Of a stretch of DNA of 64,000 nucleotides, positions 46,337 through 46,417 are shown piece after piece (within the stretch, counting starts at the first letter, position 1; every line of letters starts with the position of its first letter). Origin of the DNA: a virus; UHGV virus genome UHGV-0117634, one strand, 5' to 3'. Both the position numbers and the translations under genes were made by a program. The notes below the pieces were generated by a model, which had not been told where the DNA came from, did no database searches, and saw nothing but the letters and a program-made list of their open reading frames with translations.

Positions 46337-46417
46337 ATTATAAGTTGCCCCTTTGTAGAGAACTGATTGAGTGGGTGTTTCCAGCCGCGCATGTGTTCTT
46401 CAGTTAAGGGGCGAATT

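Follow-up and report, generated by a model that had tools for sequence, protein, structure and literature searches.

The 64,000-nucleotide (nt) window analyzed here, from virus genome UHGV-0117634, contains an array of 25 transfer RNA (tRNA) genes at 42189-47673, all of which ARAGORN placed on the minus strand. One spacer in this array, at 46337-46417, had been described in a first-pass annotation as tRNA sized, with an acceptor-like stem of 7 base pairs (bp) but no T-arm, and as possibly a decayed tRNA or a distinct small structured RNA. This 81-nt element fills exactly the gap between tRNA-Lys(UUU) (46418-46493), its upstream neighbor with an encoded CCA, and tRNA-Met(CAU) (46260-46336), its downstream neighbor; both are minus-strand genes found by ARAGORN and by the Rfam tRNA model. 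The Rfam model matched 23 of the 25 array tRNAs, with tRNA-Ser (45372-45461) reported by the related tRNA-Sec model and tRNA-Met (47345-47421) missing from the Rfam table. An encoded CCA is present in all 25 tRNAs and is mostly followed by an A/U-rich spacer, the leaders usually end in AAU or UAU, and most tRNA pairs are separated by only 1 to 7 nt. A BLAST search with 500 bases around the element returned 256 phage records, the best of which were Citrobacter and Shigella Mooglevirus phages with 96 to 98% identity. The source is an enterobacterial phage of the Ounavirinae, similar to Mooglevirus, among the Felix O1-like myoviruses.

Read on the minus strand, the spacer RNA is AAUUC-GCCCCUU-AACU-GAAGAAC-ACA-UGCGCGGCUG-GAAA-CACCCACUCA-AUCA-GUUCUC-UACA-AAGGGGC-AACUUAUAAU, consisting of a 5-nt leader, a 66-nt hairpin, and a 10-nt trailer. 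The leader, AAUUC (46413-46417), lies directly 3' of the tRNA-Lys CCA and places a C at position -1, where the homologs designated type A below have a U. The outer, acceptor-like stem is formed by GCCCCUU (46406-46412) and AAGGGGC (46347-46353), that is, 7 perfect bp (G46412-U46406/A46353-C46347) around 52 nt that are themselves paired into one long irregular hairpin. The inner stem joins GAAGAAC (46395-46401), which has one bulged A, to GUUCUC (46358-46363) and is surrounded by internal loops, AACU/UACA below it and ACA/AUCA above it. Beyond the upper loop is a near-invariant 26-nt core, (A/C)UGCGCGGCUGGAAACACCCACUCAA (46367-46392), which folds as an apical stem (46382-46391/46368-46377) with C·U, C·A, and C·C mismatches, capped by a GAAA tetraloop (46378-46381). 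The apical helix can be written UGCGCGGCUG-GNRA-CACCCACUCA, with 3 mismatches in 10 layers. The trailer (46337-46346), which has an A at position 73 followed by ACU where homologs have CCA, extends to the first base of tRNA-Met. The modeled structure is a rod-shaped hairpin of three helices with internal loops between them.

The minimum free energy of the 81-mer was -21.8 kcal/mol, compared with -12.4 ± 2.7 kcal/mol for dinucleotide shuffles (z = -3.56; 1 of 200 shuffles was as good), and that of the 66-nt hairpin alone was -20.3 kcal/mol (z = -3.12; again, 1 of 200 shuffles was as good). The terminal stem and internal pairing noted in the first-pass annotation are thus borne out, and the absence of a T-arm also held: ARAGORN made no call, and covariance model searches of both a 7-kb region and a 96-nt segment gave no tRNA match over 46337-46417 at an E value of ≤10. 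The other Rfam 15 families (including C4, signal recognition particle [SRP], transfer-messenger RNA, ribozymes, and riboswitches) produced only noise, at 10 to 14 bits against gathering thresholds of 37 to 70 bits.

A decayed tRNA gene, in which the acceptor stem alone was kept while the remainder drifted neutrally, would account for the tRNA size, the position in a tRNA slot, the 7-bp terminal stem, and the A73-CCA found in homologs. Degenerate tRNA-like genes do occur in the same array, at 46689-46763 (30.9 bits) and 47032-47112 (22.8 bits). The element shares with tRNAs (RF00005) and armless mitochondrial tRNAs the acceptor-type stem, the discriminator A, CCA in some copies, and its slot and size. 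It differs from tRNAs in having no D, anticodon, or T arm, in ending in a 4-nt GNRA apex rather than a 7-nt anticodon loop, and in having no tRNA model score. The copy in Yersinia phage P778 was likewise unmatched at this threshold, and ARAGORN was silent about the element in the window and in 17 related loci.

Homologs, the absence of which would have counted against a functional RNA, proved to be numerous. BLAST searches that began with the 81 bases and continued with divergent copies found the element in approximately 60 to 70 phage records. In the Ounavirinae, it is carried by Mooglevirus, some Felixounavirus, and P778, whose record lacks taxonomy and which probably belongs to this subfamily. 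Carriers in the Vequintavirinae are Mydovirus (Klebsiella phages BIS47 and KpS8 and Proteus phage Mydo), Seunavirus KE23, SSBI34, and ABPH49; the Stephanstirmvirinae carrier is Klebsiella phage phi1_175008; and the N4-like Schitoviridae carriers are Ithacavirus FSL SP-058 and SP-076, Pylasvirus MY01, and Gamaleyavirus IME11. A handful of further IMG/VR contigs and 15 copies in metagenome contigs came from pattern scans; a 14-mer scan of IMG/VR and a loose regular expression gave chance matches only. Each genome has one copy. A covariance model, R1, that was built from 15 copies scored the window element at 86 bits (E = 1e-21) and detected no second copy or paralog in the window, where the antisense strand reached merely 13.8 bits.

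At every locus with mapped flanking tRNAs, the element is on the tRNA strand, between two tRNAs or after one, and at least seven different tRNA neighborhoods were found across lineages. It lies between tRNA-Lys and tRNA-Met in the window and most Ounavirinae; between tRNA-Met and tRNA-Ile in P778, MY01, and metagenome copies L186 and L215; between tRNA-Gly and tRNA-Glu in Mydovirus; after tRNA-Thr in the phi92-like group; between tRNA-Ser and either tRNA-Met (SP-058) or tRNA-Asn (SSBI34); between tRNA-Tyr and tRNA-Ser in ABPH49; and upstream of two tRNAs, with none before it, in IME11. The GenBank records from these searches have over the element either nothing, a short hypothetical coding sequence (CDS), or the edge of a flanking tRNA, with no RNA annotation. 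In PQ360875.1 (locus L010, 1477-1569), an automated CDS for a 30-amino-acid "hypothetical protein" covers the element and two more tiny CDSs adjoin it; these are probably spurious calls in noncoding tRNA array sequence.

An origin in the host, or mimicry of a host sequence, was rejected. No match to the element was found in 5,426 Escherichia coli genomes at an E value of ≤10, and none of at least approximately 21 nt; none was found in 72,556 PLSDB plasmids. An 18-mer from the core occurred 24 times in 185,579 bacterial and archaeal species genomes, near the approximately 17 occurrences expected by chance, and according to R1, all 24 sites match the 18-mer alone and not the hairpin.

We then asked how the copies vary, using 25 distinct sequences realigned with R1 (alignment A4). 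Of the cells in the three-helix structure, 80.6% are paired, and double (compensatory) changes occur in 11 of the 23 modeled pairs, a count that none of 500 column shuffles reached; when the 3' partners were slid by 1 to 3 columns as a control, only 1 to 4 pairs had double changes. Because A4 was fitted to the R1 model itself, these figures should be read together with two others: RNAalifold recovered the same three helices from A4 independently, with 9 of 16 pairs covarying, and the key compensatory changes are also visible in a raw MAFFT alignment. Helix 1 is 99% paired across the 25 sequences and has double changes in 4 of its 6 modeled pairs. Its outer stem changes from GCCCCU/AGGGGC to GCCUCU/AGAGGC in P778 and KE23, to GCUCCC/GGGAGC in IME11, and to ACCCU/AGGGU in KhF3, and Henu11 has a coordinated deletion of one pair. 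In helix 2, 5 of 7 pairs have double changes, including GAAC/GUUC to AAAC/GUUU, and the tandem G·A/A·G at the base of the inner stem in the Vequintavirinae gives way to Watson-Crick pairs in the phi92-like and N4-like copies. The apical stem has G-C to A-U and C·A to U·G changes in IME11 and G-C to U-A and C·U to C-G changes in L015, and in L186 and L215 the loop-closing G-C is flipped to C-G while the GNRA loop (GAAA or GUAA) is kept. Its conservation in other phages, with compensatory changes, sets the structure apart from a chance fold.

Sequence conservation is concentrated in the core. In the first alignment, the core was identical in 11 of 11 GenBank phages except at its first base, which is C in 9 and A in the window and Henu11. 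The C·U, C·A, and C·C mismatches are fixed in 24 or 25 of the 25 sequences. Across these sequences, at least 18 changes fall in the 26 core columns and at least 62 in the remaining 40 columns of the hairpin (Fisher P = 0.0014). The hairpin of the window shares 85% identity with that of Proteus phage Mydo, and tRNAs with the same anticodon share 61 to 74%; with N4-like SP-058, the values are 71% for the hairpin and 57 to 71% for the tRNAs.

These results bear directly on the two options left by the first-pass annotation. Three helices that do not belong to a cloverleaf are maintained by compensatory changes, the 26-nt core is almost invariant in four phage lineages, and the element is more conserved than real tRNAs. 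Moreover, a neutral relic would not have substitutions so unevenly divided between core and stems, 11 double-change pairs, or a distribution that extends beyond one lineage into at least seven neighborhoods. Covariation and conservation essentially exclude a neutral tRNA relic, and we regard the decayed-gene explanation as very improbable. An ancient tRNA origin of the element is still conceivable. The other option, a distinct structured element, is the one that stands, and it is quite likely that the element is a selected structured RNA.

The ends of the element retain features of tRNA genes to different extents. The 25 sequences fall into two subtypes that correlate perfectly at both ends. 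Type A (10 of 25) has U(-1), G1-C72, and the tail ACCA in P778, KE23, and MY01 or, in the seven others, ACCC, AUCCA, or UUCC. Type B (15 of 25, including the window copy) has C(-1) and the tail AACA, AACU, or ACUU. The term "acceptor-like" was apt for the stem in that several homologs have U(-1) before it and A-CCA after it, as in the surrounding tRNA genes. In P778, the hairpin lies between the two copies of a perfect 10-nt direct repeat, ACCAAACAAU, which consists of the CCA of the preceding tRNA plus the usual A-rich spacer, repeated past the 3' strand of the hairpin; the unit therefore resembles a tRNA gene cassette in all but its body.

We considered how such an RNA might be released. The substrate features that suit E. 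coli ribonuclease (RNase) P best are U(-1)/G(+1), G1-C72, and a 3' RCCA. The element, having the same orientation as the 25 tRNAs, is presumably cotranscribed with them in a polycistronic precursor. A candidate start for this transcript is a strong sigma-70-like promoter match just 5' of the first array tRNA (47701-47730, minus strand; TTGACA-18-TATAGT with TG); promoter-like sites are no more frequent in the region than in shuffles, and this one is a consensus match only. At the other end, a terminator-like hairpin (42031-42014) was matched 3' of the last array tRNA. Both sites fit transcription of the array as long precursors, as consensus matches rather than proof. In E. coli, polycistronic tRNA precursors are cut by RNase E just 3' of the encoded CCA, their 5' ends are generated by RNase P, and their 3' ends are trimmed by exonucleases (PMC2190699). 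In the phage precursor, RNase E or 3' exonucleases acting after the tRNA-Lys CCA would set the 5' side of the element, and RNase P acting at the 5' end of tRNA-Met would set its 3' side, so that maturation of these two tRNAs alone would free the 81-nt interval. RNase P is also known to cleave hairpin-type substrates that are not tRNAs, in which an extended stem replaces the T-loop, such as pre-4.5S RNA, phi80 M3 RNA, and the C4 RNA of P1/P7 (PMC10731613, PMC11143913). In type A homologs, the enzyme probably cuts at the element's own 5' end (G+1) as well, and the GC-rich terminal stem would protect the resulting RNA of approximately 66 to 75 nt. Release by tRNA-processing enzymes seems to us moderately probable.

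The interpretation that we favor, with a similar, moderate degree of confidence, is that the spacer encodes a distinct small structured RNA that is excised along with the tRNAs and whose apical helix serves as a specific recognition site. Several observations weigh against it. The first concerns the strand. In silico, the plus strand gives the more stable fold (-30.5 kcal/mol), mainly because the conserved C·A mismatch becomes a U·G pair on that strand. The second concerns the ends. Although the window copy has the 7-bp stem, G1-C72, and A73, it has C(-1) and has ACU in the position of CCA; the outer stem is just 5 bp in some Felixounavirus copies; and the 7-bp stem runs into a 4-by-4 internal loop, whereas RNase P measures a 12-bp coaxial stack. 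Because of the C(-1) and ACU of the window and the 5-bp stems of Felixounavirus, the tRNA-like end may be dispensable or decaying in the window lineage, with the apical core intact. In addition, the high identity between families could stem partly from recent horizontal transfer and not from constraint. Finally, searches for a partner were negative. The longest complementarity to the element within the window is 11 nt, in the middle of an open reading frame (ORF), with approximately 0.9 such matches expected by chance; duplex energies with E. coli 16S, 23S, and 5S rRNA are within the shuffle distribution, and the longest word shared with them is 9 nt; and no protein gene was found to co-occur with the element across lineages. 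A 116- to 124-amino-acid ORF that adjoins the element in the Vequintavirinae, which belongs to PHROG 3330 and has no Pfam domain, was rejected as a conserved neighboring partner: it is confined to that subfamily, with no homolog in the window or the N4-like loci.

With respect to the strand, all the other evidence points in the opposite direction. R1 gives 62 to 97 bits for the tRNA-sense strands and no more than 20 bits for the antisense strands. Only the sense strand has a GNRA loop (GAAA or GUAA), and this loop varies solely within that pattern. The sense strand has 12 G·U cells, which would be A·C on the other strand, and, besides the fixed C·A, has approximately 2 genuine A·C cells. Together with the co-orientation with tRNAs, the tandem G·A pairs, and the A-CCA tail, these features point to the tRNA-sense strand as the functional one.

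The distribution raised the question of whether the element need act as an RNA at all. Near-identical phages differ in its presence: Michonne has it and Moogle does not. In Moogle, whose flanks are approximately 97% identical to those in the window, the tRNAs are joined as CCA-AACAAU-tRNA-Met, where the window has CCA-AAUUC[hairpin]AACUUAUAAU. The pattern is that of an accessory cassette, with transfer of the element between the tRNA arrays of unrelated phages. It could be a selfish or purely DNA-level element, either a homing endonuclease site or a passenger copied during endonuclease-driven repair, with no RNA function. Consistent with this, related HNH endonuclease ORFs are present in the tRNA arrays of the window (44373-44786), KE23, Henu11, L015, and ABPH49, the tRNA cluster of T4 contains the homing endonuclease gene segB, the element is polymorphic in presence and absence, and its P778 copy has the 10-nt direct repeat on both sides. 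However, covariation that preserves pairing, the G·U pairs and GNRA loop on the transcribed strand, and the exchange of tandem G·A for Watson-Crick pairs all indicate selection on an RNA fold. Furthermore, the core and the endonuclease gene coexist in the same genomes, and the distance from that gene to the element varies from 0.1 to 1.6 kb. Endonuclease-driven spread may well account for the mobility of the element but not for its conservation, and we consider a purely DNA-level explanation quite improbable.

The endonuclease genes themselves have a wide distribution. The window ORF (minus strand, inside the tRNA array) encodes a 137-amino-acid HNH homing endonuclease-like protein, and relatives with 34 to 45% identity are found in the tRNA arrays of other subfamilies (L009, 258-662; L002, 751-1236; L015, 8312-8650; and L006, 2-250). 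In Henu11, the HNH ORF is inserted between tRNA-Ile and tRNA-Met, approximately 95 nt from the element. The ORF is a possible vehicle for the exchange of array modules between phages.

If the element is a selected RNA, it could still act only in cis, as a processing or insulator hairpin. Serving RNase III or RNase E as a point of entry, or serving as a spacer in folding, it would contribute to the separation or stability of the flanking tRNAs and would have no further role once cleaved. Its location between tRNAs in a long untranslated transcript would suit such a role, as would its irregular structure of approximately 24 pairs with internal loops, which is similar in size to phage RNase III sites such as those of the T7 R1.1 type. 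However, Moogle links the same two tRNAs by 6 nt, and most pairs in the array are only 1 to 7 nt apart. A processing hairpin would also have no need for a near-invariant 26-nt sequence, a GNRA loop, and fixed mismatches, and the flanking tRNAs vary by lineage. We regard a cis-acting role as unlikely.

A role in trans by base pairing would make the element similar to C4 RNA: after maturation of the RNase P type, the apical region would pair with a host or phage mRNA. C4 of P1/P7 is a precedent, being a phage RNA with an acceptor-like stem that is matured by RNase P and acts by base pairing (PMC10731613, PMC11143913), and the weak apical helix of the element, with its three mismatches, could open. 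Against this, the Rfam C4 family was not matched at an E value of ≤10, the best complementarity in the window is at the chance level, the E. coli genomes gave no match of the length stated above, and the conserved bases are mostly helical and not in the loop. An antisense regulator of this type is doubtful.

For the structured RNA that we favor, the apical helix is a putative sequence-specific site for a trans-acting partner that is common to the enterobacterial hosts or to these phages. The partner would most likely be a protein, for which the RNA would serve as a decoy, sponge, or cofactor; pairing with an RNA target is less likely. We prefer a host-directed decoy or cofactor to a housekeeping role because of the accessory distribution of the element, its spread across unrelated phages of the Enterobacterales, and the extreme conservation of a short motif. 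A trans-acting protein-binding role is nevertheless only a tentative assignment, one that we hold to be possible without counting it as probable. A more specific version, and a speculative one that is rather unlikely to be correct in full, is that the element represents a new class of phage RNA, an "acceptor-ended rod," that is excised by host tRNA processing and whose apical helix titrates or redirects a conserved factor of the Enterobacterales, for example, a tRNA-directed defense or toxin or an RNA-processing enzyme. If true, this model would explain the spread of the element as an accessory cassette between unrelated phages via endonuclease-rich tRNA arrays.

The closest analogues of the element are T4 rnaC and rnaD, phage phi80 M3 RNA, and P1 C4 RNA. 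Like the element, rnaC and rnaD (species 1 and 2) are non-tRNA RNA genes in a phage tRNA cluster, co-oriented with the tRNAs, and the T4 cluster resembles the window array in containing a homing endonuclease gene. Both are annotated right after tRNA-Arg, and within 70908-71171 of T4 (L222, 1909-2172), rnaD ends in GCGCACCA followed by AAU, which is tRNA-like. Unlike the element, rnaC has a true, canonical T-arm (GGGUUCGAAUCCC; CCGGGUUCGAAUCCCGG), and both T4 RNAs are larger, at 139 and 119 nt. With filters off, R1 scored at best 8.7 bits (E of about 1) in the T4 tRNA region, giving no homology to rnaC or rnaD, and T4 was not listed in the phage BLAST searches with the element. The function of rnaC and rnaD is, to our knowledge, still obscure; more broadly, we know of no function proposed over the decades for the T4 species 1 and 2 RNAs and phi80 M3 RNA, long familiar as RNAs of tRNA clusters.

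In M3, pre-4.5S, and C4 RNAs, a terminal helix stands in for the tRNA body; it has G(+1), a 3' RCCA, and often U(-1), and an extended stem takes the place of the T-loop (PMC10731613). Type A copies of the element resemble these RNAs in having U(-1), G1-C72, and A73-CCA, although the full A-CCA is present in three only. The window copy is unlike them, with C(-1), no CCA, and an internal loop after 7 bp in place of a continuous 12-bp helix, and the element had no Rfam match to the C4 or SRP family at an E value of ≤10. By analogy, the element appears to resemble rnaC/rnaD, M3, and C4 only as a passenger of a tRNA operon with a tRNA-type end, and it is a member of none of these families. We rate it as, in effect, a new family within a known kind, the non-tRNA RNAs of phage tRNA clusters.

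Several other identities were rejected. An intrinsic terminator was dismissed because there is no U-run, the tail being AACUUAUAAU, and no terminator-like site was found at 46337-46417 on either strand. The hammerhead-like arrangement CUGANGA...GAAA is not conserved: the CUGAAGA of the window is AUAAAAGA, AUUAAGA, or CAUCUUGA in homologs, and no Rfam hammerhead match was obtained. A small ORF was discarded in that AUG is present in window-type copies only, with CUG elsewhere and no conserved start, and the core has no third-position variation; the compensatory changes, which fit an RNA, also argue against it. An RNA anti-CRISPR (CRISPR, clustered regularly interspaced short palindromic repeat) that mimics a repeat was set aside. 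Twelve nucleotides of the antisense strand resemble what we take to be the tail of the Klebsiella type I-E repeat; this is the wrong strand, the element lacks the hairpin of the repeat, and the hosts of most carriers belong to other genera.

Phage tRNA arrays are usually annotated as tRNAs separated by junk spacers, and here one spacer is probably a selected, horizontally mobile structured RNA common to Felix O1-like, rV5-like, phi92-like, and N4-like enterobacterial phages. It offers a tractable entry point, being a small and sharply defined family with a very short invariant motif and a natural presence/absence pair in Michonne and Moogle. Should it prove to serve as a decoy or cofactor for a host factor, the known accessory functions of phages would gain an RNA-based tool. 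Otherwise, the analysis still corrects the annotation of approximately 70 phage genomes and provides a covariance model for a new RNA family.

Other features of the tRNA arrays were observed in the course of this work. The tRNA-like gene at 46689-46763 (minus strand), which ARAGORN did not call, is just above the Rfam tRNA threshold of 29 bits; it has a perfect T-arm, the anticodon loop CUUAUAA (UAU, an AUA-reading Ile type), and an acceptor stem with two mismatches. The one at 47032-47112 (minus strand), which is below threshold and was also not called by ARAGORN, resembles tRNA-Tyr(GUA) with a long variable arm; a tRNA-Tyr is annotated at the equivalent position in Moogle and a pseudo-tRNA in Henu11. 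A second family of repeated spacer modules is present in the window array at 46637-46654, 46746-46774, 46834-46862, 47266-47283, 47315-47343, and 47478-47506. Its components are a 29-nt repeat (...ACAGAAGACCGUUUACAGCAAAC... in the tRNA sense) and a partner repeat (...AUACGGUCUGGUAAU...), and the units that the two delimit are tRNA sized and have the 7-bp stem AGACCGU/ACGGUCU. The copies at 47261-47344 and 47422-47508 have A/U-rich interiors that fold poorly, and the third encloses the tRNA-like gene at 46689-46763. In the 96-nt spacer between tRNA-Thr and tRNA-Val (44199-44294, minus strand), a long hairpin of -30 kcal/mol was found (z = -3.63; 0 of 200 shuffles were equal to it). Finally, a tRNA with a CUA anticodon, of the amber suppressor type and labeled "Pyl" by ARAGORN, is present in element-bearing phi92-like contigs (L012, 9301-9375; and L208, 3553-3627, Stephanstirmvirinae-like).

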